Source: Candidatus Dojkabacteria bacterium UBA2022
Lineage (GTDB): Bacteria > Patescibacteriota > Dojkabacteria > SC72
Assembly: GCA_002335495.1 (NCBI GenBank)
Contig: DDBW01000014.1
Span: forward strand, 9,831 to 73,830
DNA: 64,000 nucleotides
Direction: 5' to 3'
Below, one piece after another: positions 1 to 50,200 of this stretch; the stretch's first letter is position 1, and each line of letters begins with the position of its first letter. A program made the position numbers and the translations under genes. The notes under the pieces are model-generated. The model had not been told where the DNA came from and did no database searches. It saw only the letters and a list, made by a program, of their open reading frames with translations.

Positions 1-1
1 T

Positions 2-313
2 TCTATCCAAATAAACCCTTATTTACTCAAATATCCAATTTCATATTTGGCATCAGGGTTGGTGGGAGTACCTATGATTGGAATAGCAATTAATTCAATG
101 GGAAATAACTCTAATTCGGCTCTCGAATTTCTTTCTCAATTTATGATTGGTACTAGTGGATTCTTAGCAGGCAGTTTTTCCTTACATTTATTAAGTAAAA
201 TAATAAAACCTGTGAAAAATTCAATTAAGCATACAATATACCATGAACTTGCCCATTATATTTCTAACGATTTTAAAGTAAAACGTTTTGGCTTATTTCA
301 GCTTTCTCAATAA
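2..313 (+). CDS. 3' end of a gene that starts upstream of the window; C-terminal fragment with HExxH motif (possible membrane metalloprotease)
   Basis: The frame is open from base 2 to the stop at 311-313. The translated tail contains YHELAHY (HExxH) after a hydrophobic stretch. No start codon can be defined inside the window. Confidence 0.35.
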   Translation, partial: SIQINPYLLKYPISYLASGLVGVPMIGIAINSMGNNSNSALEFLSQFMIGTSGFLAGSFSLHLLSKIIKPVKNSIKHTIYHELAHYISNDFKVKRFGLFQLSQ

Positions 314-449
314 TTATATTTGATTAAAAATTTTCTGGGTAGATTGTGGGAAGAAATAAGAAAGTCTTTAATTACTTATTATTTAGCCGTACATTATCTT
401 TAGTTTACAGATTCACCTTTTATACTTTTTACAATATAATAAAAATATT

Positions 450-1256
450 ATGGATAAATACGTAATATTTTTAATAGTCCTTGTTTCGCTCATAGTACTC
501 ACTTTTTTGTTACTAGAAACACTTGTGTTTTTTATAGTTAACGATTTATCTATCCCTACAATAACTCTCTCAAAAGATATTAAGAGAGTACTAGTAATTT
601 ACCCACATCCTGATGACGAGATATTAATTACAGGAGGTTTTATGAAAAAACACTCAAAAGATAGAGAAATTACTTGGGTGGTACTATCAAAGGGTGAACG
701 AGGGACGCCTAATGCAGTTCTTAATGAGAACCTCAAAGAAATACGGGCAGACGAGGCAAAAAGGGTTTCAGAATTACTAAAAGTTAAAAGTTTTTCACAT
801 TACGATTTTAAGGATAATGAAATGGAAACACAGGAAGAGAAACTAGAGAAGAAAGTACAACAAATCGTTAAAGATTCTAATCCCGATTTAATAATTACTT
901 ACGACACCGCAGGGCTATATGGTCATCCAGATCATATTATTACTTCTGAAATAGTTACAAAGATTGCAGAAGAAAAGAATATAAAACTCTGGTATGCAAC
1001 AAACGCCAAAAGAGTACTTGATATGGCTTCATTACCTGAGCATATGGCAAAAGACCCTAACTTCAAGGATAAAAGAAAGTATCCAAATGTTAAAGTATTT
1101 GTAGGATTAGAGGGAAGTATAGCAAAGAGTAAGGGAATAAGCATATATGAAAGTCAATTGCAGTCATTCGTATCAGCTTATCCAATAAAGTGGATACCAT
1201 TGCCTATATACAACTTACCAATGGTTTACGAATATTTTTATCAAGTTAACGAATAG
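450..1256 (+). CDS. PIG-L/LmbE family N-acetylglucosaminyl deacetylase
   Basis: N-terminal TM helix. Motifs VIYPHPDDEILITGG and GHPDHI are typical of PIG-L (GlcNAc-PI de-N-acetylase/LmbE) zinc deacetylases. Confidence 0.8.
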   Translation: MDKYVIFLIVLVSLIVLTFLLLETLVFFIVNDLSIPTITLSKDIKRVLVIYPHPDDEILITGGFMKKHSKDREITWVVLSKGERGTPNAVLNENLKEIRADEAKRVSELLKVKSFSHYDFKDNEMETQEEKLEKKVQQIVKDSNPDLIITYDTAGLYGHPDHIITSEIVTKIAEEKNIKLWYATNAKRVLDMASLPEHMAKDPNFKDKRKYPNVKVFVGLEGSIAKSKGISIYESQLQSFVSAYPIKWIPLPIYNLPMVYEYFYQVNE

Positions 1257-1553
1257 CTTATTGTATAAACTTGAAAGTATTGCAAAACCCATTATGGGGG
1301 AATGTTAGAATTTTGGGGTCGCAAAACAGGACGTTTTCGACCTTTTGATTAAAAAGATTATACCACTGGCAAAAGAGCTTAAAAAGGTACAAAAAGACTA
1401 CTATGCATTTATGGAGATTGCGGATAAATTACCCAATAGCACAATAGATTACAAACTTTAGATATTAGATCCCAGAATTTCTATGACCTATTAGAGGGTA
1501 TTGCGGAGTGAGTACTACTTGTTGTTTAATAAACTAGACTAGTTTAAGAAACT

Positions 1554-1676
1554 TTATTTCTTCTTTTTGTCACTTCTTGTCTTTCTCCAAGCTCCAGATT
1601 TAGTTCTGGATCTTGGTTGTTTTCCTCCACCTTCATCTTTGACGTGCGGAATCCTACCAGCTCTTCTATCTGCCAT
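1554..1676 (-). CDS. small (40 aa) highly basic protein, unknown function
   Basis: Hand-translated minus-strand ORF MADRRAGRIPHVKDEGGGKQPRSRTKSGAWRKTRSDKKKK. A strong SD (GGAAAGGAGGT) lies 8 nt upstream of the ATG. It is absent from the ORF track because it is under 60 aa. Confidence 0.4.
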   Translation of the reverse strand: MADRRAGRIPHVKDEGGGKQPRSRTKSGAWRKTRSDKKKK

Positions 1677-1761
1677 ATATCTAACCTCCTTTCCAACGAC
1701 TCCTCACTCCGCATTTAATTATATCCAATTGTTACGAGAATATTAAATAACTATAGAGAAC

Positions 1762-1790
1762 TTCCAAATTTCATCTTCGAAAGATATAAT
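1762..1790 (+). promoter_or_regulatory. candidate sigma70-like promoter upstream of the res-ATPase-mod-AlbA_2 operon
   Basis: TTCCAA, then a 17 nt spacer, then TATAAT ending about 28 nt upstream of the res ATG. The -35 match is weak. Confidence 0.3.
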
Positions 1791-1817
1791 AGAGAAATAT
1801 TTACCTAATGCATAAAA

Positions 1818-4466
1818 ATGAAACTTAAGTTTGAAGCTAACCTACAGTACCAGAAAGATGCAATAAACTCAGTAGTGAAGTTATTTGAAGGTGCTCCATA
1901 CATAAGACCCGAAGATAGAATCTCTCAAGAAGTCTCCCCGAACATTTTAAAGATCACACAAGAAAAAATATTTGAGAATTACAACAAAATAGTTACCGAA
2001 AGTCTCATCGATGAAGGTAAACAAGCAAAGAATAGTGACCTATTGGATTTTTCAGTTGAAATGGAAACTGGAACTGGAAAAACTTACATATATTTGAGAA
2101 CTATCCTAGAGCTATATAAAAACTATGGTTTAACAAAATTCTTAATCGTTGTACCAAGTATTGCAGTAAAAGAAGGAGTTATCAAAACTTTAGATATGAC
2201 GAAAGACCATTTCAATGAGTTATTCAACGAAAAGATCCAATACTTCGAATATGACAGTAAGAAATCTACGAGAGTAAGGCATTTCGCCTACAGTAATACA
2301 CTTCAAGTAATGGTGATCAATGTTCAAGCATTTAATGCAGATGACAACATTATCAATCAAGAAAGAGATGTAAATAACGGAGCGAAACTAATTGATTTGA
2401 TCAAAGCCATAAGACCTGTTGTGATAATGGATGAACCTCAAGAAGGAATGGATAGTAAAAATATGGAGAAGAGATTCAATCAGTTAGATCCACTATTTAA
2501 GATTAGATACTCAGCCACACATAAAAAGCCAATAAACCTAGTCTACAGACTCACTCCTTATGAAGCATACAATCAGGGATTAGTTAAAAAGATTGAAGTG
2601 TACTCAATCCACGAAGAGAATACCCAAAGCAATGTTGAGATTGAGTTTAAAGAGATTAAATATACTTCAGCTAAACCAGAAGCAAAGTTACAAGTAAACT
2701 ATAAAGTTGGAACCGATTTCAAAACTAAAGACGGTTATTTCAAAGAATTAGACAACTTGGAAGAGAAAACTAAAAATCCCGCCTACAAAGGATGGATCAT
2801 TGAAAGAATATACAAGGATCTAATGGATAACACTGAGAAAGTGAAATTCAGTAACGGAATTGAATTAACAAGAGGCTCAAAACACGGATGGGATAAAGAA
2901 TCTATCTTTAGGGAACAGATACGCTGGACTATAAAAAGACATTTCCAAAAGAAAGAACAATACAAAGATCTAGGAATTAAAGTCCTATCTCTATTCTTCA
3001 TTGATCGAGTAGCAAACTATGTAAATGCAGAGGGGATTATCAAAAAGCTTTTCATTGAACTATATAAACAAGAATACAAAGATAAGTACGGGAAAGAACC
3101 TGAGAATGTTGATCAAGTACACAATGGATACTTTGCAAAAACCAAATCAGATGAATATACCGACAATGTTAACTCAATGCAGAAAAACAAAGAGATCTAC
3201 AACCTAATTATGAAAGATAAAGAGAGATTATTATCTTTTGAAGAACCATTAGAATTTATATTCTCTCACTCCGCACTAGGTGTTGGTTGGGATAATCCCA
3301 ATGTATTCCAAATATGTACCCTAAATGAATCACATAGTGAGGCTAAAAAGAGACAAGAGATAGGTAGAGGTTTAAGAATATGTGTTGATAAAACAGGTGA
3401 AAGATATAGAGATCCTGATACAGTCACAGAAGGACAAGAAATAAACCTTCTAACCGTAATCCCAAATGAAAGCTATCACGCATTTGTAACACAATATCAA
3501 GATGAAATTATCGAAGAGACTGGAGATACAAGAGCAACTAAAGTACGAAATGCGAAAAAGGGTGCAAACAAAATTGGAATTAACAAAGATATTTTAAACA
3601 GCGATGACTTCCAGAACTTATGGAAGAAGATACAGAAGAAAACAAAATTTATGGTCTCCTTTAGAGAACAAGAGTTGGTAGATAAATGTGTAGATGAACT
3701 TAGTTCAATAGTTGTAAGGGAGCAAATTATTCAGACCCAAGCAATACAAATTAAGAGTCTAAGTGAATCACAAGACATAAACCAGAATATCCTCACAAAA
3801 GGAGAAACTTCAACAAAAGCAAAGAGTTCTGTTGCCAATATTGATCTAATTGATCAACTATCTGAACAAACTTCTTTAAGTATTAAAACTGTAATTGAGA
3901 TACTAAGCAAGATTTCAAATCAAAGTATGCTTACTAAAAATCCAGTTGTATACCTTACAGAAGCAGTTAAAAGAATTAAACGAGTACTAAATACTGAAAT
4001 GGTAAGAGTTATTAGCTATCAACCTACTAATGAGGAATTCCCAATTGAAGATTTCGAGAAGTTCGATCCTCAGACATACAACGATGTAGTACCAGCACGT
4101 AAAGGGGTCTATGACGCCGTAGAATACGATTCAGCAATCGAAAAAGACTTTGTACTAGATATAGACCAAGAAAACAAAGTAAAGGCATTTGTGAAGCTAC
4201 CAAAATGGTACAAAATTGAAACACCTATTGGTACTTACAATCCAGACTTCGCTTTAGTAATGGAGAAAAAAGATCTTGAAAAAGGTGGAGAAACAAAATA
4301 CTACTTTGTAATTGAAACAAAAGGTACAGACGATATTAACGAGCTAAAAGATGAAGAGAAAATGAAGATTCAGTGTGCTATTAAACATTTTGAAGCAATT
4401 GGCTTTGAAAAATATATGGCACCTGTAAAGAATCTAAATAGCTTTAAGAGTAAGGCAAATATTTAA
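1818..4466 (+). CDS. res: Type III restriction enzyme Res subunit (SF2 helicase plus C-terminal PD-(D/E)xK nuclease)
   Basis: Helicase motif I METGTGKTY and DEAD-like VIMDEPQ. Type III Res-like length of 882 aa. C-terminal nuclease signature NPDFALV...YYFVIETKG. Confidence 0.8.
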   Translation: MKLKFEANLQYQKDAINSVVKLFEGAPYIRPEDRISQEVSPNILKITQEKIFENYNKIVTESLIDEGKQAKNSDLLDFSVEMETGTGKTYIYLRTILELYKNYGLTKFLIVVPSIAVKEGVIKTLDMTKDHFNELFNEKIQYFEYDSKKSTRVRHFAYSNTLQVMVINVQAFNADDNIINQERDVNNGAKLIDLIKAIRPVVIMDEPQEGMDSKNMEKRFNQLDPLFKIRYSATHKKPINLVYRLTPYEAYNQGLVKKIEVYSIHEENTQSNVEIEFKEIKYTSAKPEAKLQVNYKVGTDFKTKDGYFKELDNLEEKTKNPAYKGWIIERIYKDLMDNTEKVKFSNGIELTRGSKHGWDKESIFREQIRWTIKRHFQKKEQYKDLGIKVLSLFFIDRVANYVNAEGIIKKLFIELYKQEYKDKYGKEPENVDQVHNGYFAKTKSDEYTDNVNSMQKNKEIYNLIMKDKERLLSFEEPLEFIFSHSALGVGWDNPNVFQICTLNESHSEAKKRQEIGRGLRICVDKTGERYRDPDTVTEGQEINLLTVIPNESYHAFVTQYQDEIIEETGDTRATKVRNAKKGANKIGINKDILNSDDFQNLWKKIQKKTKFMVSFREQELVDKCVDELSSIVVREQIIQTQAIQIKSLSESQDINQNILTKGETSTKAKSSVANIDLIDQLSEQTSLSIKTVIEILSKISNQSMLTKNPVVYLTEAVKRIKRVLNTEMVRVISYQPTNEEFPIEDFEKFDPQTYNDVVPARKGVYDAVEYDSAIEKDFVLDIDQENKVKAFVKLPKWYKIETPIGTYNPDFALVMEKKDLEKGGETKYYFVIETKGTDDINELKDEEKMKIQCAIKHFEAIGFEKYMAPVKNLNSFKSKANI

Positions 4467-4471
4467 AAACT

Positions 4472-5929
4472 ATGTTTATAAAAAAGGCAACAATAAAAAA
4501 TTACAGAATATTTTCCTCAAGTGAGGATTTTATTATTGATAATATAAACGTACCAGATAATTCAAATGTTGGCAGTGGATTAACAATTCTTGTTGGAGAC
4601 AACGGTTGTGGAAAATCATCCATTCTTGAAGGAATATCTTTGCCAGTTCTATCATATAAATCTGAATCCTTTTGTTTAGAAGATCTAAACGACTTAGACT
4701 CTAAATGCGAGATAAAATTGTTTGCTAATTCGAATTTTGAAGTAAAAGGGAGTCTCCCTAATAAATCCAAACCAACTTTTCAAGCACAAGGTTTTGAATT
4801 TATAGGAAATATTAGAACTCGAGACAACAAATCATATTTAACACCATTAATTGTTTCAGATCAAAAGTTTATAAGAGCAGATGGTTTAGATAAGCCAGAA
4901 GATAGCAGTCCAGATTTAAGGGTAAACGTTAACAACCCCTTTAGCGGTAATCGTTTTACTGATAATGATTATCTATATCTAGACAAGAATAGGACATTCC
5001 AAACAAGGAATGGTACTTATAATACAACAAAATTTGACAGATTAATGGACAATTTTAATTTTCAATATCTAAAGTCGGTAGAAGAAGCCGAAAAAACGGA
5101 TATAAACGAATCCGTTAGACAAACAACTATCTCAAAAGTATCTAACACATTTTTGCAAAATTCATTTGAAAAGTTTAAAGAAATCTCTGGATACGACTTA
5201 TCCTTAAATATGATTTCATCTTTAGAGCCATTTAAACATGCAAGCATTGGTGATAACAGAGATAACTTACAACAAATAAAATTGTCTGCGTTAGGTTCTG
5301 GCTATGAGATGATCTTTACCCTTTTGTACAATTTTTATTTGTCACAACAAGCAGGAAAAGATTTAATTATACTTATTGACGAGCCCGAATTGCACCTTCA
5401 TCCAAAACTACAAGAAAAATTAGTAGAGGTTTTACTAGAATTTTCAAAAACTAGTCAAATAATTATTACTTCCCATTCACCAATCCTCGTAAAACAGCTA
5501 TGTGTAAATGACAAAGTCGAAACAAAGATAATCAAACTGGGTAACGGTGTTCCAGAATTGTCGTCAATAAATGAGAAGTTATTACCATACGATTCAGCAA
5601 ACGAAATAAACCACTTAGCTTTTGACTTCCCAACGCCAGAATATCACGATGAACTATATGGGAGATTGCAGGAGTTATTATTGTGCTTTGACGAAGCTAG
5701 CATAGAAACAGCTTTAGTTAGAGATCATAGTATTAGCAAGACAAAAAGATGGCAGCGGGAAAAAAATGGCGCGGTAAGTGGAGCGGAGTATGATATAACA
5801 CTTCAATCTTTTATCAGAAATAAACTTCACCATCCAGAAAATATTACTATGCAGAGTAAAAAGTTTACGACTAATGAGTTAGAGCAATCAATCAATGAGA
5901 TGCGAGTAATAATTAAATCGCTTATTTAA
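4472..5929 (+). CDS. ABC-type (AAA_21/AAA_15-like) ATPase with a distinct C-terminal domain carrying an R-x4-H (RNKLHH) HEPN-like motif; PrrC/RloC-like architecture
   Basis: Walker A GDNGCGKSS; degenerate signature LSALGSGYE; Walker B/H-loop LIILIDEPELHLHP; ITSHSP D-loop-like segment. The C-terminal roughly 130 aa have no Toprim motifs but contain IRNKLHHPEN. A 6-nt gap follows res and an 18-nt gap precedes mod. Confidence 0.6.
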   Translation: MFIKKATIKNYRIFSSSEDFIIDNINVPDNSNVGSGLTILVGDNGCGKSSILEGISLPVLSYKSESFCLEDLNDLDSKCEIKLFANSNFEVKGSLPNKSKPTFQAQGFEFIGNIRTRDNKSYLTPLIVSDQKFIRADGLDKPEDSSPDLRVNVNNPFSGNRFTDNDYLYLDKNRTFQTRNGTYNTTKFDRLMDNFNFQYLKSVEEAEKTDINESVRQTTISKVSNTFLQNSFEKFKEISGYDLSLNMISSLEPFKHASIGDNRDNLQQIKLSALGSGYEMIFTLLYNFYLSQQAGKDLIILIDEPELHLHPKLQEKLVEVLLEFSKTSQIIITSHSPILVKQLCVNDKVETKIIKLGNGVPELSSINEKLLPYDSANEINHLAFDFPTPEYHDELYGRLQELLLCFDEASIETALVRDHSISKTKRWQREKNGAVSGAEYDITLQSFIRNKLHHPENITMQSKKFTTNELEQSINEMRVIIKSLI

Positions 5930-5946
5930 GTTTATGAGTAGTAAGA

Positions 5947-7824
5947 ATGAATAAAACATATAAACAGTCAGAAGACCTATACAAAGAGAAGGTTGAGCAA
6001 TTAAAAGCCATTTATCCTGCACTCTTTAGCGATGAGGGTAATTTAAATGAAGATGAGCTAAGAAACTTTCTAAAGCAGTTCGCTTCTACCTCTGAAGGCA
6101 AATATGAGTTTAACTGGGCAGGGAAAATGACTGCGAAAAGAAATGCTTTTACTACTTCAAGAGCAATGTTAAAACCAGACAAAGATAGAAGTATTGATTT
6201 TGATAAAACAGAAAACTTAATTATCGAAGGAGATAACTTAGAAGTATTAAAACTACTTCAGAAATCGTACCAAGGAAAAATCAAATGCATTTATATTGAT
6301 CCTCCATACAATACAGGAAACGACTTTATCTATACGGATAACTTTTCAGAAGAGAAGAAGGCATACTGGGAAAAGTCAGGTACAACACAAGATGGAGTGA
6401 AGTTAGACACAAATACAGAATCACAAGGGAGATATCATAGCAACTGGTTGAATATGATATATCCAAGATTACTACTTGCTAGAAATCTGTTAAGGGAAGA
6501 TGGTGTGATTTTTATCAGTATTAATGACTTTGAAGTTCATAATCTAAAGAAAGCAATGGATGAAATATTTGGAGAAGAAAACTTTATCGCCCAATTAGTT
6601 TGGGAGAATAAAGAAGGTGGAGGTAGTTCAGATAGCAAACTTTTTAGGATTAAACACGAATATTTGCTTTCATACACAAATAATAAAAATATCGTCAATA
6701 TCAAGGGTGAAATCAAAGGTGAAGACAATAGTTATACATATGAAGACGAATATCTATCTAAACGTGGTAAATACAAACTAATAAAGCTTAATAGCTTCAG
6801 CGTACAGTACTCTCCGTCACTTGACTACGAAATATTACTCCCAAACGGGGAAAAGGTTATGCCTAGTGAAAATGGGAAAAGAGGATGTTGGCGTTGGTCT
6901 AAAGAAAAGCTAGATTGGGGAATAAGAAATGGTTTTATTGAATTTAAAGAAAATTCAGAAGGTAAGTTATGGGTCTATACAAAGCAGTATTCTAAGGTTG
7001 ATAACGAAGACAAACCAATAATTCGAGAGTTACCCTTTAGAGGAGTAATCAGTAAATATTCCAGTACCAAGGCAACAAAACAACTCGAACAATTAATGGG
7101 GTTAAAATTATTTGATTATTCGAAGCCTTTCGAGCTAATAAAGTTTATATGTACAATATCCTCAGACAAAGACTCAATCGTTTTGGACTTTTTTGCAGGT
7201 TCAGGCACTACGGCACAAGCTGTAATGGAATTAAATAAAGAAGATCGTGGTAACAGGAAATTTATACTTGTACAAATACCAGAAAAAACAGATGAAAACA
7301 GTGAAGCTTACAAAGCAGGATATAAAAAAATATCAGATATATGTATCGAAAGAGTAAAACGAGTATCTAAGAAATTATCAGAAGAAAAAGCTACAGGAGA
7401 TCTAGGGTTTAAAGTCTTTACATTATCTCCAAGTTATTTCCCTGAAAACCTCTTTACACCAGATCCAGAGAAGACAGAAGAAGAAAATAAAAAAGCATTG
7501 GCAAAATACATAGAAGAAGCATCCACACAATTGGAATTCAAATTTGACGAGTTTGATTTAATGTATGAGGTATTACTTAAAGACGGATTTACACTAAACT
7601 TTAAAGCTGGGAAGTTATCTGAATTTCCTAAGAACAATATCTATAAAGTTACGGACGGTGAAAAACACGCTCTAGTGACCCTTGATCCCGATTTAAAGGA
7701 CGAAACCCTACAAAAGCTACAAAGTTACACTGAAGAAAGATTCATTTGTTTAGAGAGGGCTGTAGACACTACGAAGAAGTGGAACTTACAGAATATGTTT
7801 GGGAGTAATCTTTGGGTAATTTAA
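5947..7824 (+). CDS. mod: Type III restriction-modification Mod subunit (beta-class N6-adenine DNA methyltransferase)
   Basis: Motif IV DPPYNTG precedes motif I FFAGSGTT, with a target-recognition region between them. At 625 aa it is adjacent to res. Confidence 0.85.
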   Translation: MNKTYKQSEDLYKEKVEQLKAIYPALFSDEGNLNEDELRNFLKQFASTSEGKYEFNWAGKMTAKRNAFTTSRAMLKPDKDRSIDFDKTENLIIEGDNLEVLKLLQKSYQGKIKCIYIDPPYNTGNDFIYTDNFSEEKKAYWEKSGTTQDGVKLDTNTESQGRYHSNWLNMIYPRLLLARNLLREDGVIFISINDFEVHNLKKAMDEIFGEENFIAQLVWENKEGGGSSDSKLFRIKHEYLLSYTNNKNIVNIKGEIKGEDNSYTYEDEYLSKRGKYKLIKLNSFSVQYSPSLDYEILLPNGEKVMPSENGKRGCWRWSKEKLDWGIRNGFIEFKENSEGKLWVYTKQYSKVDNEDKPIIRELPFRGVISKYSSTKATKQLEQLMGLKLFDYSKPFELIKFICTISSDKDSIVLDFFAGSGTTAQAVMELNKEDRGNRKFILVQIPEKTDENSEAYKAGYKKISDICIERVKRVSKKLSEEKATGDLGFKVFTLSPSYFPENLFTPDPEKTEEENKKALAKYIEEASTQLEFKFDEFDLMYEVLLKDGFTLNFKAGKLSEFPKNNIYKVTDGEKHALVTLDPDLKDETLQKLQSYTEERFICLERAVDTTKKWNLQNMFGSNLWVI

Positions 7825-7828
7825 TAGT

Positions 7829-9085
7829 ATGGAAATATTAAGAAGAGATATTAAAAATATATCTTTTGACGAAATAGTTGAATTTTGTAAACTAGGGTAT
7901 CCTGAGGGATCCCAATTAGACTATAAGAAGAAATTTAGTGAAAACTTCTGGAGTAATGAACTTCAAAAAGATGTTGCATCCTTTGCAAATATGCAGGGAG
8001 GGATAATAATAGTTGGAGTAAAAGAGGATAAAACAACGGGAAAACCAAAAGAATGGGAGGGGATAGAAATTAATGCAGAAGAAATTGATAGGATCGACAG
8101 AATAGTGGCAAATATGACCCCATTGCCACACGCGGAATCTCACTTAATTCCTAACGAAGAGAATACTAAATGTTTTTTAGTAATACGTATTCTTGAGGGT
8201 TCGAATAAGCCTTATTATGCTAATAATGATCCTATTGAATGGATAAGAACGGGAAAAGTAAAAACACCGATTGAACCTGCTTCGCCTCAATACAAAAAAT
8301 ATCTATTTGACGATAAGAATAAAGCTTCAGAACAAAGGAAATTTCTACTTGAATATGCAAACAAGATATTTAAAGGGCATACTTTTAATAGATTTGAAGA
8401 AATGCTTTTAAATGGGGAACTGGATCACTCAGTCATAGGCAGTGTACATCCAGATTTTGATAAAACCAAAGCGAGACTACAAATAGCAATCCTCCCTTAC
8501 AATCCAAATAAGACATTGATAACACCAAGCTCATTAAAAGATAAAATATACAATATTCGGATCTCAGAAGGGATTACAGATTTCCCAATAGTAAATTGGG
8601 CTTTCCAGACAACACCGAAAGGAATATCAACGTTTGTACATCTAGACAACGATCAAACAATTAATATGCAAATTTTTGGAGAAGGTTTAATATTTTTTTC
8701 GTATGACATATGTCAAGAAAAAGAGACTGAAAAGAATATCTGGCAAGGTTTTAGTCTTCCGGTAATATTGAAATACACTCATTTATCACTTAAATTGGCT
8801 GAAAGTTTGTACAGAAATCTAGGATATCAAGGAGAATTGTTAAGCAAAATAGAGATAGCGAATGTTATTGGACTTAATGCTTGTAGTGATTTACATAGCT
8901 CTCAATACAAGAAAGCCCTTCTCTATAGCTATAATTGGGATATATTGTTTAATACATACTCAATATCAAATGAAGATGAGTACTGGAAAACGTTTGCCGA
9001 ATTTGGTAAATCCGTTTATGAAAGCTTTGATTTTAGCTGGGTCACTCCGGATAAAATAAAAGAATATACTATGTCTAGTTGTTAG
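7829..9085 (+). CDS. AlbA_2 (Schlafen-core-like putative DNA/RNA-binding) domain protein with an uncharacterised C-terminal domain
   Basis: N-terminal roughly 130 aa match the AlbA_2 pattern (ISFDEIVEFCKLGYPEGSQLDYKKKF...ASFANMQGGIIIVGVKED...EEIDRIDRIV). It starts 5 nt after the mod stop, so it sits in the same operon. Confidence 0.65.
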   Translation: MEILRRDIKNISFDEIVEFCKLGYPEGSQLDYKKKFSENFWSNELQKDVASFANMQGGIIIVGVKEDKTTGKPKEWEGIEINAEEIDRIDRIVANMTPLPHAESHLIPNEENTKCFLVIRILEGSNKPYYANNDPIEWIRTGKVKTPIEPASPQYKKYLFDDKNKASEQRKFLLEYANKIFKGHTFNRFEEMLLNGELDHSVIGSVHPDFDKTKARLQIAILPYNPNKTLITPSSLKDKIYNIRISEGITDFPIVNWAFQTTPKGISTFVHLDNDQTINMQIFGEGLIFFSYDICQEKETEKNIWQGFSLPVILKYTHLSLKLAESLYRNLGYQGELLSKIEIANVIGLNACSDLHSSQYKKALLYSYNWDILFNTYSISNEDEYWKTFAEFGKSVYESFDFSWVTPDKIKEYTMSSC

Positions 9086-9121
9086 GCTTTATATTCTATT
9101 AAATAGTAATATAATTTAGCT

Positions 9122-9403
9122 ATGCATAAGACGGAGGAATCAGTAACAAAACAACAAAAGCCAAAACTTTCTGAAATAGCTAAAAAGAAGATGGAAGAAA
9201 TCTTCATAAAACAGAAAAAAGATCCCAAAGAGGATCCTGCTAAAATATATCTTCAGCTATTAAACCAGTACGAACCTCCTGTTGACGAAGACGATGAAGA
9301 TGACGAGAATACTGATAACTCATTAGAAGACTATACTTTCTTTAATAACGACGGAACTAAGTTCAAAGAGCTACCTAAAAATGAGAGGGTTAAGACAAAA
9401 TAA
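9122..9403 (+). CDS. small hypothetical protein with a strongly acidic C-terminal segment (DEDDEDDEN)
   Basis: ORF with a Lys-rich N-terminus and an Asp/Glu run. No recognisable motif. Confidence 0.35.
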   Translation: MHKTEESVTKQQKPKLSEIAKKKMEEIFIKQKKDPKEDPAKIYLQLLNQYEPPVDEDDEDDENTDNSLEDYTFFNNDGTKFKELPKNERVKTK

Positions 9404-9716
9404 AGATCAGATTGTCGAACTCCTCCACGATTACATCGTATTAGGTTACAGTATCAATAAATCTTGTCAGTACATAGGAATTCCGCACACAACAGTTCAT
9501 ACTTGGATAAACAACGATCCAGAGGTTCGTATGAAAATTAACTCTTGGAAAAACATTGTAAATCTTGAAGCAAGAAAAAGAATTGTCGAAAAAATAGTAA
9601 ACGGAGATATCAAAGCAAGTATGTGGTGGCTAGATAAGTTTGATTATATTGAAAACTCAAATGAAGAGAAAAGTAATCAATTAAGCATCGAAATAAATGG
9701 CAGAAAAGTATATTAA
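9381..9716 (+). CDS. small HTH DNA-binding protein, terminase-small-subunit-like (alternatively an excisionase/RDF-like protein)
   Basis: HTH-like segment YSINKSCQYIGIPHTTVHTWINNDPEV followed by the ASMWWLDKFDY motif, reminiscent of phage small terminase/HTH proteins. It overlaps both the upstream ORF and the recombinase start. Confidence 0.35.
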   Translation: MRGLRQNKDQIVELLHDYIVLGYSINKSCQYIGIPHTTVHTWINNDPEVRMKINSWKNIVNLEARKRIVEKIVNGDIKASMWWLDKFDYIENSNEEKSNQLSIEINGRKVY

Positions 9717-11385
9717 CGAAATCGCAGAAGAAGAGTTAAGAATCTATTGCGAAGAAGTTAGAAAGATCAATTTGCGAAGGCGTGGAATCTATATTCCCCC
9801 AGAGGAGAAACTGAGATATGTACTATATGCAAGAAGATCAACAAAATCTTCTCCCAAGGAAAGATTAGATAAAGCCACGTCAAGAGAAGAAAGAAAAAAA
9901 CTAGATAAACAAGAAAGGTCTATTCCAGATCAAATCAGTGAATGTTTGAAATTAGCACAAAAAGAAGAGCTACAAGTTGTTTTGATAGTGCAAGAAGAAG
10001 GATCAGCATATGCAAAGGATAATCGAAAGAAGTTTGATAAGATGATCAATGATATAAAAATTGGTAAATACGATGGGATAATTGCTTATGCACCAGATAG
10101 ATTAGCAAGAAATATGAAAGAAGCTGGTGAAATGCTTGATATGGTAGAAGAAGGAGTTATCAAAGATCTTAAATTTCCGACATTCCATTTTGAACGAGAA
10201 ACAAATTCAATGCTCTCGCTTGGACTAAACTTCTTACTCGCAGAAAACTATTCAACAAACCTTTCATATCACACAAAAAAGGCAAATGAAGGGATTATCA
10301 AAGAAGGAAAGGGAATAAGAAATTCAAAACTTGGATACATACTAAATAAAGATCGTTACTTTAGACCAGATCCAGATAATTTTGAAAAAGTAAAAACATT
10401 ATTCAATTTAGGATTAGAAGGGAGAACTTTAATTGATATTGTAGACATAAGTAAAAGACTTGCAATAACTTTCAATGGAAAACTACGAGTATTTACGACA
10501 CAAAATCTATCTAGTCTCTTACGGGATCCATTTTATGCAGGAAAACATCTTAATGGAACCCAAATAATTGACCTAAAAGCAATCGATAAAGACTTCACAC
10601 CTATGATTACTGCTCTAGATTTTACAACCATTAGAAGGCACTACGACAAATTAAGTAGTCGAAGAAAATCGAAAACCAAAGAGCCACTGTTCTTTACTGG
10701 ACGCGTAATTTGTAACAATTGTGCGAAGTTATGCTCAGCAGGAAAAAGTACAAGCGGAAGTGGACATAAATATCTGTGGGTTAATTGTACAAACAAGGAA
10801 TGCAAGCACAAAGTAAGAATTAGGGGAACAGATCTTCTTAAATATTCTGGAAAAATACTGACCAATCTTTCAAAGAGAATAACCAAGGAAGATTTCGATA
10901 AATTTGTATCACAAGTGAAGAAAGAACAGCCTGAAAGACTTGATCGTTTACAATACAAACATATTTCACTTAGTCAGGAAATCAATGAAAAGAAGGAAGA
11001 AATCAGTGCGAAGGAAAAGCAAAATATGCGAAAGGACTTAAGCCTAGAAACAAAAAAATTGATTAATATTGAAATTAGTAAGCTTTATTCTGAGTTGAAC
11101 AAATTAAACTCGGAAAGAGAGGAAATAAAGAATGACCTTCTTATATTGAAGGTAAACTTAGGAACAGAATTAGAGTCTTTAGAAAAGTTTTCGACCTTTT
11201 TAAAAGAGGCCGACAATACAATAAAAACCAGTCATAATAAGTACAAGGTAGACAAAATCATAAAAATGGCATTTTCGACCTATGTCGTAGAGGGCAAAGA
11301 TATTGTAGCATATAAACTTAAATCACCACTTGAGGGGTACAAAAATCTCGATAGTTTCTTGAATGGGGTGGAAGATGGGACTTGA
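9697..11385 (+). CDS. large serine recombinase (integrase-type)
   Basis: Catalytic-region motifs YARRST and DGIIAYAPDRLARN. A Cys-rich zinc-ribbon segment CNNCAKLC...CTNKECKHK. A long C-terminal coiled coil. The last 22 nt overlap the 3' end of tRNA-His. Confidence 0.7.
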   Translation: MAEKYINEIAEEELRIYCEEVRKINLRRRGIYIPPEEKLRYVLYARRSTKSSPKERLDKATSREERKKLDKQERSIPDQISECLKLAQKEELQVVLIVQEEGSAYAKDNRKKFDKMINDIKIGKYDGIIAYAPDRLARNMKEAGEMLDMVEEGVIKDLKFPTFHFERETNSMLSLGLNFLLAENYSTNLSYHTKKANEGIIKEGKGIRNSKLGYILNKDRYFRPDPDNFEKVKTLFNLGLEGRTLIDIVDISKRLAITFNGKLRVFTTQNLSSLLRDPFYAGKHLNGTQIIDLKAIDKDFTPMITALDFTTIRRHYDKLSSRRKSKTKEPLFFTGRVICNNCAKLCSAGKSTSGSGHKYLWVNCTNKECKHKVRIRGTDLLKYSGKILTNLSKRITKEDFDKFVSQVKKEQPERLDRLQYKHISLSQEINEKKEEISAKEKQNMRKDLSLETKKLINIEISKLYSELNKLNSEREEIKNDLLILKVNLGTELESLEKFSTFLKEADNTIKTSHNKYKVDKIIKMAFSTYVVEGKDIVAYKLKSPLEGYKNLDSFLNGVEDGT

Positions 11386-11441
11386 ACCCACAACCCTCGG
11401 TTCCACAAACCGATGCTCTAACCAATTGAGCTACTCCCACC
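11364..11441 (-). tRNA. tRNA-His (anticodon GTG), with encoded G-1 and 3' CCA
   Basis: Hand-folded cloverleaf: G-1 opposite C73, acceptor GTGGGAG/CTTCCAC, D-stem GCTC/GAGC, anticodon loop TTGTGGA, T-loop TTCAAGT, CCA encoded. Confidence 0.8.
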
Positions 11442-16282: not shown

Positions 16283-17137
16283 TTACCATTTCTTACTCAT
16301 CAATGATAAGGAGTCATCTTTAGCTAGCAAAACTTTCATTTGCCTTATAGCTATATCATTTAATCTAATCAAACGTTCTGATTGTGTTAGACCAAGGTTA
16401 ATATATTCTGCATTAAGAGATTCCAAGTTAGTAAGACATACAAGCTGTTGAAGGGTGGCATGATCTCTTATATTCCCATTAAGACCAGGGTTTAGCTCTC
16501 GCCATTCTTTTGCAGTTATTCCAAATAACGCAACATTTAAAACGTCTGCTTCATTCGCATAAACAAAATTTTCTCTTAGTTTTCCAATTTTCTTCGGAAC
16601 AATATTATGTTTTATTGCGTCCGTATGGATGCGATAGTTAACCTTAGACAAAATACGTTTAACATTCCATTCCAAATTTTCAGTTTCATTTTGCTTCAAT
16701 AGCTGATATTCTCGAATCAAGAATAGCTTAAATTCTGCTGATACCCAACTTGCAAATTCAAAAGCAATATCCTTGTGAGCAAAAGTTCCAGATCCATACC
16801 TACCTCTACTGGTTTTTAAACCAATAGCATTTGTAATAGTCACCCACCTTTCAGGAGATAATGTAAAAGAATTTAATCCAGACTCTTTTCTAAAGGAGTC
16901 GAATTCGACCCCTTTAAAATTTATGTTATTTATTGATTCCCACAAGCCAAGGAATTCTATTGTATTCCTTGTTCTTAGCCAATTTTTAACAACGTCTTTT
17001 GGTTCATCTGGGTTTTTATATCTAGCGATATCAGTGAGGGAAATATATTCATCTTTAATATTTATATCAATATCCTTAACTATAATCTTGTTTTTCATCT
17101 TAGTATCCCCTTTACAATTTAGTTTATGAAATAACAT
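16283..17137 (-). CDS. KilA-N domain-containing protein (phage/virus-derived DNA-binding protein family)
   Basis: N-terminal roughly 110 aa fit a KilA-N/APSES-like pattern (ISLTDIARYKNPDEPKDVVKNWLRTRNTIEFLGLWE). It lies immediately beside tRNA-Leu(CAG). Confidence 0.6.
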   Translation of the reverse strand: MLFHKLNCKGDTKMKNKIIVKDIDINIKDEYISLTDIARYKNPDEPKDVVKNWLRTRNTIEFLGLWESINNINFKGVEFDSFRKESGLNSFTLSPERWVTITNAIGLKTSRGRYGSGTFAHKDIAFEFASWVSAEFKLFLIREYQLLKQNETENLEWNVKRILSKVNYRIHTDAIKHNIVPKKIGKLRENFVYANEADVLNVALFGITAKEWRELNPGLNGNIRDHATLQQLVCLTNLESLNAEYINLGLTQSERLIRLNDIAIRQMKVLLAKDDSLSLMSKKW

Positions 17138-17179
17138 ACATAAACTTTAGCAATACATTATGAAATCCCCAATATAATC

Positions 17180-17266
17180 TGCCAGGAGGGGGAGTTGAAC
17201 CCCCACCTCTTTTTAAAGGAGACTACGACCTGAACGTAGCGTGTCTGCCAATTTCACCATCCTGGC
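17180..17266 (-). tRNA. tRNA-Leu (anticodon CAG), class II with a long variable arm
   Basis: Hand fold: acceptor GCCAGGA/TCCTGGC with A73; anticodon stem CTACG/CGTAG; loop TTCAGGT; long variable arm; T-arm GGGGG-TTCAACT-CCCCC. CCA is not encoded. Confidence 0.75.
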
Positions 17267-47200: not shown

Positions 47201-50200
47201 GACCGTATACACAAACTATTTACTTGGTTCAAGAGATATAGCATACACTAATCGCAAATCAGATAGCATCATTAAAACAGAAGGAAGCTATAGCCAGGAA
47301 ATAAAAAACACTTCTATACAAAACGACTCAAACACAATATCTGCATGGAGCTTTGAAGAAACCAGCGGAACCGGAGCGTTCATAAAAGATATCACCGGAA
47401 ACAATTCAATTACACCTACAGGATCTTCTTTAACAAGAGGAGTAATAGGGAATGCCCGATTATTCAGTACTTCAGATAACTTTGCGACAACACTGAACGG
47501 GTTTGATACTACTCAGAATAATATAACGGTTTCATTCTGGGCGAGGCCAACGATGACTGGCCCCATCAACACGACCTTTTTAGCGGCAACCCCAAATGAT
47601 ACAGCCAATAGGTTCTTAATACACTTCCCATGGAGTGATGGAAATATGTACTGGGATTATGGAGACATTAATACTGTAGGAAGACTATCGGCAGCATTTA
47701 ATTCATCATGGTACGGAGAGTGGGCCCACTGGGCGTTTGTATCCGAACAAGGAGTAGGGCAAAAAATATTTAGAAACGGGACCCTAATTGCAAGCGACGC
47801 GACAGCTGGGACGTTTACAAAGCAGGCAAAAACACTCTCCTTTCCAAGCAGTTGGCAGGGAGTGTTGGATGAGGTTGAAATCAGTGGAATAGCTAGAACT
47901 CAAAAAGAGATTAACGATGCCTACAGACAAGGAAGTGATAACTACATAAACCTTCCAGTTTCTAGTACCAATATTACCTCGGATAGAAACCTTAAATTTG
48001 ATATAGCTGCAGATACAGCAGGGCAATATTTAGAGGCAATTATAGGAGAATCTGCATTCGCAAACTACCAAACAGATAGCAATACTGTAGGGTTATGGCA
48101 CTTTGACGAGACAATAACCGACCCAGCATACTTTCAGGACACAAGCGGTAACAACAACAAGATAAATTACACTCCATTCACAGCAACCGGAGGTACAATA
48201 ACAACGTCTGGCATATATACAATACATACATTCACCACCAGTGGAACTTTTACCCCTAACAAGCCAGGTGTAGTAGATGCATTGGTAGTTGGCGGCGGAG
48301 GAGGAGGTGGTGGTGGTACATTAAGCGCATGGGGAGGAGGAGGTGGTGGTGGTGGCGTAGTTAAGACTACTACAAACTTAGTAATATCAGCAAATACTTC
48401 CGTTACAGTGGGAAATGGAGGAACTGCTGGAGCTCAAGACAATCCTGGAGGAAACGGAGGTAGTTCAGTATTTAGCACACTAACCTCCCTCGGAGGAGGA
48501 GGTGGTGGTGGTGGTGGTGGTGCTAACGCTACAGGTAGAAGCAATGGAACAGGAGGTGGGGCAGCCGCAGGAGGTACTGGAGTATCTGGTGGAACAAGTA
48601 TAGATGGGAGCGGATTCGCTGGAGGATCAGGTTCAACATGTAACACACCTTGTAGATCAGGAGGAGGTGGTGGTGCAGGCGCAGCTGGTACAAGTGGAGC
48701 AGTTGGGCCAGGTAACGGAGGAATTGGAATTCTAAATTCATTAACAGGTACTTCAACATATTATGGAGGAGGAGGTGGTGGTTCAGGAGGAACTCAGGGA
48801 GGAGTGGCTGGAACCGGAGGACAAGGGGGAGGCGCAAACGGAATAAACTTTGGAACAGCTGGAGCAGGGACGGCCAACACAGGAGGAGGAGGAGGAGGTG
48901 GTGGATACCAAGGATCGGGAGGAGCAGGTGGAAGCGGAATAGTAATTGTTAGATACGAGAATGGACAATCGACAACAGTAGGAGAAGGTCGCCTTGGAAA
49001 AGGAAGATACTTCAACGGACTAAGCGAATACTTACAAACTACGAATAATTATAACTTCACATCCGAAAGCTTCACTATTTCAATGTGGGTAAAACCATCT
49101 GATATCTCCAATAGCCCAGTTATGGTAAGTAACGGATCATGGCAGGTAGATGGATATTACATGCATATCCTAAGCAACGGTGGAGTCCAGTTTATAACAA
49201 GCCAAGCTGGAGTGATACAAGTTTCAAGCAGTAAAGCTGGATCAGTAAAAGTTAATCAGTGGAATCACATTGCGGTTGTAAGAAGTGGAAGTAGCGTAAG
49301 AACATATGTAAATGGGATGGATAAAACTACAGTGGTAGGGACGCATGTAAATCCCACATCCACAACGACACCGTTTAGAATAGGAAACTATAGTTCAGGG
49401 ACTTTGTATATGTATAAAGGATATCTAGACGAACTCCGAGTTGATCGTGTAGCGAGAACTGCAGAGGAGATAAGACAGGCATTCAACTTTGATAGTAGAA
49501 CATACGATATTGAGATTGATTTTGCAGCAAAGTTAGATAACTCAAATGTAATCAATAGCATTGCCGATACATCATTTATTGTAGATGCTACATACCATGG
49601 AGCACACCAGAAAGGAGACAACTTATACGTAGGTGACAAGATTATTGTTAGAGAGAATGTTAACGGTATAAGGTATATGGCAACCGGAACGGTAACCTCT
49701 GTAACAACATCAACAGGACTGACCTCGGTGGCCTCATGGGATGTGGGATCAACATTTCCACCGTCGGGCTATACCCAAAATGCAGGACTTTTTAAATGGC
49801 AAACTGAATATTGGAAAATCCAAGAAACAAATCTATCATCTCACTTAGATGCTGTAAGCCTAATCACAATAAGAGTAACAGATGGCAAGATTGGACGAGA
49901 ATTATGGATAGACAACATCGGCAGTACAGGTTCATACCTAACAAATCCTTCCGGATCAACAATTACATCATCCACCGGGAACCGGTACTTACAATATAGA
50001 GTAATACAAAATTCTAATAGCAGAGACCTAAGCAGTAAGCTAAGTCTTCTTAGCGTTGATTACACATCAAATGTGGCCCCCAATACCCCAACCTTAGATT
50101 CTCCATCCAATGTAACAGCCAGCCAGCCCCTTCGCCCAGTTCTAAGAACAACAGCAACAGATGTCGACCTTGACTACATCAGATACCGCATTCAATTGTG

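Follow-up and report, generated by a model that had tools for sequence, protein, structure and literature searches.

A probable tRNA-His integrative island of a Dojkabacteria genome and its serine recombinase gene, apparently split by integration

Targeting of tRNA genes is typically a habit of tyrosine integrases. In the tRNA islands carried by such enzymes, the integrase gene abuts the tRNA gene at its 3' end, a repeat is present at the far end and the tRNA remains intact (PMC12884075). The present study deals with a locus where a serine recombinase appears to have taken up this habit. It is found in a stretch of 64,000 nucleotides (hereafter "the window", meaning the whole stretch analysed; positions 9,831 to 73,830 of contig DDBW01000014.1) from Candidatus Dojkabacteria bacterium UBA2022, a metagenome-assembled genome (MAG) from a bioreactor sludge metagenome, in which it is part of an 87-kb contig. 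In this window, a gene for a large serine recombinase (LSR) runs into the tRNA-His gene at the right edge of what is very probably a mobile defence island, and the attachment site of the element (attP) probably lies within the frame of the recombinase itself.

Several described systems share part of these features. Serine integrases such as those of phiC31, Bxb1, TP901-1 and Listeria A118/LI, as well as CcrAB of SCCmec and XisF, have the same domain order as the window LSR, use a short junction repeat and are encoded at one end of their element. However, the window LSR is very distant from them in sequence, targets tRNA 3' ends and appears to have its attP inside its own open reading frame (ORF). 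Moreover, the elements are carried by Patescibacteria and take the form of small islands (3-10 kb) that are not phages. With P4-like and Islander/TIGER-type islands, the locus shares an integrase at the tRNA 3' end, a far-end repeat, an intact tRNA and a hotspot with alternative occupants. It differs from them in having a serine recombinase, a repeat of only 6-18 nt that covers just the acceptor/CCA end, and an integrase ORF that runs into the tRNA.

Two systems are of particular interest with respect to gene splitting. In the archaeal SSV-type "suicidal" tyrosine integrases, which have been called exclusive to archaea, the att site is located within the integrase gene, a tRNA gene is targeted and the integrase gene is partitioned (PMC8371274). 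The att site inside the integrase gene, the tRNA target and the partition on integration make the window LSR a functional analogue of these enzymes, not a member of their group. It is a serine recombinase of a bacterial host that exchanges only its last 46 codons and, once integrated, keeps every recognised LSR domain, whereas the fragments of a split SSV-type gene are probably inactive. In the integration-dependent immunity of mycobacteriophage BPs and its relatives, attP is located in the 3' part of the repressor gene, the target is a tRNA gene, and the product made from the prophage is shortened at its C-terminus and has changed properties (PMC4557955). Unlike in BPs, the split gene described here encodes a serine integrase and not a repressor, and neither a degradation tag nor an immunity function is evident. 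The BPs integrase is a tyrosine recombinase, and the locus is not assigned to the BPs type.

In the literature searched, which included few subscription journals, we found no serine integrases with a systematic preference for tRNA 3' ends, no tRNA-targeting serine integrase in bacteria of the candidate phyla radiation (CPR) and no case of attP within the gene of a serine integrase. As an integrative island with a serine integrase, the locus is of an ordinary kind; what appears to be new is the split-integrase design and its spread in Patescibacteria.

Ends of the island and continuity of the recombinase frame

The initial annotation of this DNA had described a 562-aa serine recombinase ending 22 nt within a tRNA-His gene of the opposite strand, at one edge of an integrative island of about 10 kb. 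These coordinates are exact. ARAGORN places the tRNA at 11364-11440 on the minus strand, Rfam recognises it with 68 bits and G-1 is encoded at 11441. The TGA stop codon of the LSR (11383-11385) is located within the T-loop, giving a 22-nt overlap with the antisense tRNA. The features of the locus, including all its plus-strand ORFs, are collected in Table 1.

Table 1. Features of the tRNA-His locus (window coordinates)
Feature	Position	Strand	Evidence
PIG-L gene	450-1256	+	Pfam PIG-L
Putative core of the left junction (attL), TGGGGT; directly repeats the 3' terminus of tRNA-His	1314-1319	+	start of homology with L044/L045; identical to 11364-11369
Putative displaced LSR 3' end, start-less, 48 codons and stop (...GV-AKQDVFDLLIKKIIPLAKELKKVQKDYYAFMEIADKLPNSTIDYKL-stop), last 46 codons = tail	1315-1461	+	in frame with 9697-11364
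Small basic ORF	1544-1714	-	called in every assembly and in L044/L045; region 96-99% identical to L044
Type III restriction endonuclease subunit (Res)	1818-4466	+	Pfam ResIII and RE_endonuc; PADLOC REase_III 8e-211
ABC-type ATPase (AAA_21/AAA_15; NsnB/AriA/PtuA/GajA-like), between res and mod	4472-5929	+	Pfam, PADLOC
Type III DNA methyltransferase (Mod)	5947-7824	+	Pfam N6_N4_Mtase; PADLOC MTase_III 4e-177
AlbA_2 (Schlafen-type) protein, variable cargo slot	7829-9085	+	Pfam SLFN_AlbA_2 1.4e-14
Acidic 93-aa ORF, conserved recombination module	9122-9403	+	82% identical in L009-L012, directly upstream of the LSR module
111-aa ORF, overlaps the LSR start by 20 nt	9381-9716	+	86% identical in L009-L012
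Large serine recombinase, integrated form, 562 aa	9697-11385	+	Pfam Resolvase and Recombinase; invariant residues
Putative right junction (attR) core TGGGGT, complement of tRNA A71-A76	11364-11369	+	identical to 1314-1319
tRNA-His (GTG), intact, encoded G-1 and CCA; putative attB target, host sequence	11364-11441	-	ARAGORN, Rfam

The left end had been expected in the gap between 1257 and 1817, and it is indeed located there. Two contigs of another host (L044/L045) carry a sister element with 91% nucleotide identity to the window over 1314-4462. The homology starts abruptly at 1314, 58 nt past the PIG-L gene, and there is no similarity to the left of this breakpoint, where PIG-L in the window faces a DUF2085 gene in L044. 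The six nucleotides at the breakpoint, TGGGGT, recur at 11364-11369, where they are the plus strand of the tRNA 3' terminus (complement of A71-C72-C73-C74-C75-A76). The breakpoint was found independently of the tRNA, and we estimate the chance of a 6-mer match exactly at this position at about 1/4096. Taken with the recurrence of the element beside unrelated flanks, the breakpoint and the presence of TGGGGT at both ends argue for the LSR-mobilised island first proposed. We consider it highly probable that the segment 1314-11369 is an integrative defence island of about 10.05 kb, inserted at the 3' end of tRNA-His by its own LSR, with attP within the LSR frame. From the sequence of the two junctions, the crossover is placed within the last 6 nt of the tRNA (A71-A76, CCA included), and the tRNA would never be interrupted. 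The crossover dinucleotide should be inside TGGGGT. The last 6 codons and the stop of the LSR in its integrated form are host tRNA sequence.

The gap also contains the start-less ORF 1309-1461 of the initial annotation, with the peptide quoted there. It had been regarded as a gene remnant left at an insertion boundary. A start-less fragment at the edge of the insertion it is, but it appears to be the displaced 3' end of the LSR gene and not a disrupted host gene. Within the repeat, GGG is a codon both in this ORF (1315-1317) and in the recombinase (11365-11367). When the two ends are joined at the repeat, a single ORF of 604 aa is obtained, with the terminus ...LNGV-AKQDVFDLLIKKIIPLAKELKKVQKDYYAFMEIADKLPNSTIDYKL-stop, whereas the integrated gene terminates as ...LNGVEDGT-stop, where the antisense strand of the tRNA, up to its T-loop, provides VEDGT and the stop. 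A 604-aa LSR would therefore be encoded by the excised circle or by a tandem junction, and a 562-aa LSR by the integrated state. The corresponding predicted junctions are GATAGTTTCTTGAATGGGGTCGCAAAACAGGACG for attP and GGGGGAATGTTAGAATTTTGGGGTGGAAGATGGGACTTG for attB. The region encoding the tail is the best-conserved stretch of the element, with 99.3% identity to L044 and one synonymous difference in 150 nt (80-93% identity for res). It contains no stop or frameshift, and the encoded protein is 100% identical to that of L044.

An uninterrupted homologue, P0009 (590 aa, 33% identity, locus L052), has no tRNA within 10 kb. Past the last conserved motif of its C-terminus, it continues without interruption for 55 residues, just as many as the joined ORF of the window has there, and both proteins end in DYKL. 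The P0009 ORF includes a tRNA-His-like TGGGGTGGA, and its DNA core TCTGGGGTGGAGAAT resembles the 3' end of tRNA-His. P0009 thus seems to display the frame restored at a P-P' type junction, in a circle and in a tandem array alike. In tblastn searches with the P0009 tail, start-less homologues with 38-46% identity were found upstream of tRNA-His in L075, L028, L033 and L038. L075 is an independent island of 5.1 kb. Its recombinase (9441-10967) overlaps a tRNA-His (10946-11022), and at its left junction, about 5.1 kb upstream, CTAA|TGGGGTGGAGAATTTC opens an in-frame homologous tail, GVE-NFKSSEHNTLYQLSSLLSIKKVLDKYNKLISENLINTNVEIINYRF-stop. The right junction reads TTACA|TGGGGTGGAAGAAGGG and the repeat is 10 nt long (TGGGGTGGAG). 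More generally, the terminal repeats of sister islands measure 7-18 nt.

Apparent tandem defence islands are found in L052 (2070-21773; Logan SRR16951077). Their genes encode, one after the other, a Type ISP restriction-modification (RM) system, Dcm, a HATPase_c_3 protein, recombinase 1 with its intact tail, an HTH protein, an MmeI-type RM system, a HEPN protein and recombinase 2. In L114, two tail fragments are located upstream of a single recombinase.

The distribution of the recombination module bears on its mobility. The closest homologue of the recombinase (P0002, 84% identity) is encoded on contigs of other samples (L009-L012), where the 22-nt overlap with tRNA-His and both upstream ORFs are kept (Table 1). 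In this other host, the right flank is unrelated (GlmS and others) and the tRNA-His differs at about 8 positions (anticodon stem, D-arm, 5' acceptor strand). Since the module is found in another host with a changed cargo, it appears to move between hosts and to exchange cargo. No common genes were found between the flanks of L009, L044 and L046 and those of the window. The layout of the element is that of a conserved right-hand module (acidic ORF, 111-aa ORF, LSR) and a conserved left-terminal 600 nt, with swappable cargo in between. A Res homologue with 72% identity (P0246) belongs to a genome having the RM system without any recombinase, and is for this reason uninformative on the element ends.

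Several observations weigh against a mobile island with these ends. The direct repeat is of 6 bp only, and there is no convincing dyad symmetry in the reconstructed attP and attB, where at most 13-14 of 24 positions are matched. When the 21 kb leftward were searched blindly with the right junction (11335-11430) for copies in direct or inverted orientation, only noise was returned, at about 60% identity. Likewise, nothing longer than 10 nt was found when a tRNA-His 3' fragment was sought as left boundary in the window and the 10 kb to its left, with up to 3 mismatches and with blastn-short. The shortness of the repeat explains why neither an att-like repeat nor a tRNA fragment came out of these searches. 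The predicted attP junction had 0 matches in viral contigs. All the assemblies of the single sample carry the integrated state, with no empty attB and no excised attP junction for the species. Composition separates the island from its right flank only, not from the left one. Concerning the tail, a second recombinase gene begins 8.8 kb downstream of P0009, and L052 may be a tandem array, with the P0009 tail provided by the left end of the following element, rather than a free circle. Finally, the tail helix in the AlphaFold2 (AF2) model of P0009 has a predicted local distance difference test (pLDDT) score of 35-65.

The finding of integrated copies only, without a circle junction, would also be accounted for by a former integrative island that is now a fixed chromosomal RM locus and is no longer moved by its recombinase. 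Fossils do exist in the family, such as the fusion of Mod to the LSR in L046/L047, or L028, L033 and L038, which keep only LSR or tail remnants. For the window, we regard this as unlikely. The LSR is full length and has kept every invariant residue of catalysis and zinc binding, the two junction cores are undamaged, and the tail is open and protein-identical to that of L044. In addition, copies with 80-99% nucleotide identity in different hosts argue for recent transfer.

Another location of the junction was also considered. Two 1.4-kb contigs of other samples (L006/L007 = L037), 100% identical to the right flank, start exactly at 11383. Together with a G5-U68 wobble, they prompted the idea of a hybrid tRNA, with a 3' half supplied by the element and a crossover in the T-loop. 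This idea was ruled out because the 48-nt tRNA core starting at 11383 is common to 27 contigs of other Dojkabacteria species, and because the comparison with L044 puts the junction at the CCA end. The start at 11383 is most likely an assembly break caused by the tRNA core shared between species, not an att site.

The recombinase and its family in Patescibacteria

The LSR matches PF00239 (1.4e-13) and, slightly above the cutoff, PF07508 (22.5 bits for a cutoff of 21.1), while PF13408 is recognised on many homologues. S48, R46 and other residues of the catalytic domain are invariant in family alignments of 28 and 68 sequences, and so are, in the family alignment, the zinc-ribbon cysteines C339, C342, C364 and C369. 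A sequence search of the PDB retrieved the TP901-1 catalytic domain only (E = 4e-4), and the NCBIfam matches to XisF and Ccr are weak. The structural comparison was made with a model of the homologue P0009. The AF2 model (mean pLDDT 84) consists of a catalytic domain, a long helix E, a helical recombinase domain and a zinc ribbon, followed by a long helical hairpin (385-474), a closing beta-hairpin, a disordered linker encoded by the attP core (540-552) and a single helix (553-589). With this model, Foldseek retrieves full-length serine integrase complexes (9y66, 9dxd, 9dxh, Bxb1 9iu2, PhiC31 9rah and 4kis), with E values from 9e-16 to 4e-9. By its domains and invariant residues, the window protein is judged to be an intact LSR.

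One may ask if such an enzyme, encoded beside an RM operon, could be an invertase or a resolvase serving that operon, for instance in phase variation of mod. The target-recognition regions of Mod do diverge between sister elements (64% identity overall compared to 94% at the C-terminus). However, there are no inverted repeats around mod or any other segment, the 562-aa LSR has recombinase, zinc-ribbon and coiled-coil domains, and its family is associated with many unrelated cargos, always at tRNA 3' ends. A role other than that of an integrase is therefore extremely improbable.

Relatives of the recombinase were recovered from 557 species genomes by a degenerate-pattern scan using one genome per species. 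The best 80 are nearly all from Patescibacteria and include Saccharibacteria, Dojka-, Woese-, Gottesman-, Pace-, Peregrini- and Gracilibacteria among others. At 45 of the 75 loci having a complete ORF, the end of the ORF overlaps an antisense tRNA, most often tRNA-Pro (21), then tRNA-Leu (6), tRNA-Gly (6), tRNA-His (5), tRNA-Val (2), tRNA-Lys (2), and tRNA-Asp, tRNA-Ala and tRNA-Glu (1 each). Among the loci without overlap, many finish in tRNA-like peptides beside undetected fragments. The same holds for 120 database homologues, where the residues past the last conserved motif are almost always a translation of antisense tRNA. About 65 of them have 12-13 such residues, ending with SRGAGN, GRGERT or GVEDGT followed by the stop, and about 20 continue as ...TRTxDLxxPxxA-stop.

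Displaced tails were then sought across the family, upstream of tRNA-overlapping recombinases, as open frames placed directly after 7 nt or more of repeated tRNA end. Among 204 repeat sites, tails of 36-56 aa were obtained 48 times in the correct frame (28 loci), 20 times in frame +1 and 16 times in frame +2. Pairs of tails from different loci that are similar by blastp were found in the correct frame only (19 pairs, involving 13 tails; 0 in frame +1 and 0 in frame +2). Homologous in-frame tails are present at the far ends of at least 13 islands. Their layout is common to the various tRNA specificities, with a few residues, a LELF-like helix start and about 45 residues in total, ending in IDYKL, IDYVL, MDYIL, IIY or ITL. 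The positions of the tails imply islands of 2.9-9.6 kb, the upper limit being fixed by the 10-kb flanks.

These results also bear on the possibility that the continuity between the LSR frame and 1315-1461 is a coincidence, or reflects a constraint on attP as DNA, the tail being no functional protein segment. The tails of the window and P0009 are weakly similar, confidence in the modelled tail is low, and the first 25 bp or so would be constrained as an attP arm in any case. Yet 48 open codons in DNA of 33% GC have, by our estimate, a chance of about 2%, to be multiplied by 1/3 for the frame. The family has an excess of in-frame tails, with protein similarity across loci in the correct frame only. 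Tail length and the C-terminal motif are common to different tRNA specificities, and the tails of P0009, L075, L028, L033 and L038 are 38-46% identical. We therefore find coincidence quite improbable.

The fossilised member of the family mentioned above deserves a description. In L046/L047 (5332-8448; ENA ERZ27249270/ERZ27249274), a sister island is located between ProRS and tRNA-His. Its 1038-aa ORF is an in-frame fusion of Mod (1-605) to a recombinase whose first 110-125 residues, and with them the catalytic serine, are missing. This fusion ORF still ends 22 nt within tRNA-His, and no tail fragment was found at the left end.

A possible switch between two integrase isoforms

The following scheme can be proposed. 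Integration would cut the last 46 codons off the LSR gene and leave them, start-less, at the far left end of the island (1315-1461). The remaining 562-aa form, possibly with the product of the 111-aa ORF as a cofactor, would catalyse excision by recombining attL with attR. Circularisation would then rebuild the full-length gene, and the tail would act in the excised state only, where it might favour integration, block re-excision or alter the stability of the protein. The outcome would be an isoform switch that depends on the state of the element.

Conservation of the tail is an argument in favour of this scheme. The tail cannot be translated from the integrated copy and yet is conserved, so that selection must act while the element is excised. 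If so, the tail-less enzyme should be able to excise and the full-length enzyme should act in the circle. The conservation of tails across relatives of about 30% identity further suggests that the elements still cycle through an excised form. The 111-aa ORF, which has a homologue of 30% identity upstream of the LSR in L030, is a candidate regulator or directionality factor.

On this basis, we tentatively propose a Patescibacteria-centred LSR clade in which the attP core is located in the enzyme's own ORF, the target is the CCA end of a tRNA and two integrase isoforms exist, the tail of about 46 residues being a switch of directionality or stability. The clade might also be a main vehicle of defence genes between CPR genomes. 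This general view is possible rather than probable. If true, it would provide a serine-recombinase, bacterial counterpart of the archaeal "suicidal" integrases and of integration-dependent immunity. A design with attP in the integrase gene suggests that directionality could be controlled without a separate directionality factor, or in addition to one. The mobile elements and the traffic of defence genes in CPR bacteria are poorly known. Moreover, the ends and att sites of these islands can be predicted from sequence and attB is a conserved tRNA end, which makes these elements candidate DNA-delivery tools for organisms without genetics.

Cargo, flanks and the tRNA-His hotspot

Behind the recombinase, the initial annotation had recognised a same-strand block made of res, an ATPase gene, mod, an AlbA_2 gene and two small ORFs, and had called the cargo a defence operon. 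ORF analysis, Pfam and PADLOC confirm the block and place res and mod in Type III, and the defence nature of the cargo also holds for sister islands. One label is left without support, that of "HTH" for the 111-aa ORF. The window copy has no Pfam, NCBIfam or PDB match, and a faint HTH_23 match is seen only on its homologue of 86% identity. The acidic 93-aa ORF has no family match. No repressor or phage genes were found in the island with Pfam, PADLOC and NCBIfam.

Res and Mod are encoded in one operon, which assigns the system to Type III RM. As in EcoP15I-like systems, a helicase and an endonuclease domain are combined in Res, and Mod belongs to the N6/N4 methyltransferases; the PADLOC matches of both are strong. 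Unlike in these systems, res precedes mod, an ABC-type ATPase is encoded between the two and the whole system is the cargo of an LSR. The NCBIfam score for Type III Res is 315.7 bits, below the equivalog cutoff of 564, which makes the protein a divergent member of this family. Homologues of Res with 97%, 91%, 87% and 83% identity are found on other Dojkabacteria/WS6 contigs, the closest being P0241 on L044/L045. In L045, mod directly follows res without an ATPase gene, which designates the ATPase gene of the window (4472-5929) as an insertion; in L046 and L050, an ORF of 121-122 aa occupies the same position. Such an operon, of Type III RM but with a middle gene that varies, may represent a composite system of defence. 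Mod homologues have 94% identity over the C-terminal 214 aa (L009) or 64% over 516 aa (L011). The AlbA_2 gene is present in L045 (87% nucleotide identity) and replaced in L009 by a gene for an 842-aa PDC-S06-type ATPase. In the wider family, the islands carry genes for an SNase nuclease, Dam and Dcm methylases, Mrr, MmeI-type enzymes and SMC_N/AAA_23, AAA_13 and AAA_21 ATPases, and also for a radical SAM protein, HATPase_c, DUF4238 and a cyclase. Much of this cargo is thus related to restriction-modification or associated with defence.

The conserved left-terminal 600 nt include a small basic ORF on the minus strand (Table 1). Its start is probably the internal ATG at 1680, behind an AAGGAGG motif, which would give a protein of about 45 aa. 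A promoter-like site is present at 1746-1718 of the minus strand. PADLOC and NCBIfam searches gave no family match for this ORF. It is bracketed by an imperfect inverted repeat of 20 nt (1502-1521 / 1694-1713; GCGGAGTGAG...CTCACTCCGC), and the stretch 1498-1716 containing this repeat is 96-99% conserved in L044. A search for a terminator or structure downstream of the tail gave nothing significant.

Up to about position 11400, the GC content of the window is about 0.33; rightward of it, 0.39-0.42. At third codon positions (GC3), the island genes have 0.26-0.34 and the right-flank genes 0.33-0.50, for 0.357 +/- 0.024 in the rest of the window, in keeping with the claim that genes to the right of the tRNA are richer in G and C than the island. 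To the left, however, PIG-L is as AT-rich as the island, and so is the adjoining part of the contig (L002) for at least another 10 kb (GC 0.28-0.39, GC3 0.21-0.35). Codon usage and GC content therefore distinguish the island from one flank and not from the other, and composition cannot place the left end. For the same reason, they give no support to the view that PIG-L looks chromosomal. Left of the island, this AT-rich stretch of at least 11 kb (window 1-1256 and L002 1-10000) contains accessory-looking APH, GNAT, NUDIX, aldo-keto reductase, NYN, FHA and PIG-L genes. The maximum GC content of the window, 0.44-0.45, is reached at 48000-52000.

A left flank as low in GC and GC3 as the island raises the question of a larger unit, in which the 10-kb element would be only the layer nearest the tRNA, within a variable region of low GC that spans at least 21 kb and includes PIG-L, APH, GNAT, NUDIX and other genes. 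The hotspot character of tRNA-His points in the same direction, as do a PIG-L gene 87% identical in L031 and L023 with dissimilar flanks, and the tandem LSR islands of L052 and L114. However, when the 10 kb to the left were examined by sequence searches and by a scan with a hidden Markov model (HMM) of the tail, neither an integrase nor a fragment of a tRNA or of a tail was found. The sister element has nothing in common with the window left of 1314, and PIG-L homologues (74% and 57%) are found among housekeeping genes. Such a larger region is doubtful, although not negligible, and it would be compatible with the island proposed here, the mobile unit still being 1314-11369.

The empty site anticipated by the initial annotation, with PIG-L next to tRNA-His, was not found for this species, but PIG-L does abut tRNA-His in more distant Dojkabacteria (L031, L023/L039). 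The right-flank proteins were found by exact look-up on the same contig and on short contigs only, and a scan of genome contigs with the 168-aa right-flank protein gave no relative. The closest relatives of PIG-L (74% and 57% identity) are non-syntenic, in other Dojkabacteria, without a tRNA-His nearby. For a sister recombinase in another Dojkabacteria species, a recombinase-free allele exists at the same tRNA (L016 vs. L017/L030), and homology begins exactly from the CCA end. The 3' side of tRNA-His is a hotspot, where a given right flank may be joined to as many as three different left sides.

This variability takes several forms. In L019/L032, L025/L029 and L020, right flanks with 89-92% identity (97.6% for L016 vs. 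L017/L030) are joined to two or three entirely different left sequences, and L020 has a more distant recombinase (26% identity) that likewise reads into tRNA-His. The PIG-L genes beside tRNA-His in L031 (2459-3264) and in L023 (6058-6862) / L039 (1582-2386) have 87% nucleotide identity, while the other flanks of L031 and L023/L039 are about 65-70% alike or unrelated. L036, otherwise 93-98% identical, has no PIG-L at tRNA-His and carries a different segment of 4.2 kb instead. PIG-L may thus be exchangeable cargo of the tRNA-His hotspot. Elsewhere in the window, at about 16283-17266, a KilA-N domain gene on the minus strand adjoins a tRNA-Leu (CAG; 17180-17266) in a region where GC drops to 0.34, compared to about 0.40 around it. 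This region may be another small mobile-element remnant at a tRNA.

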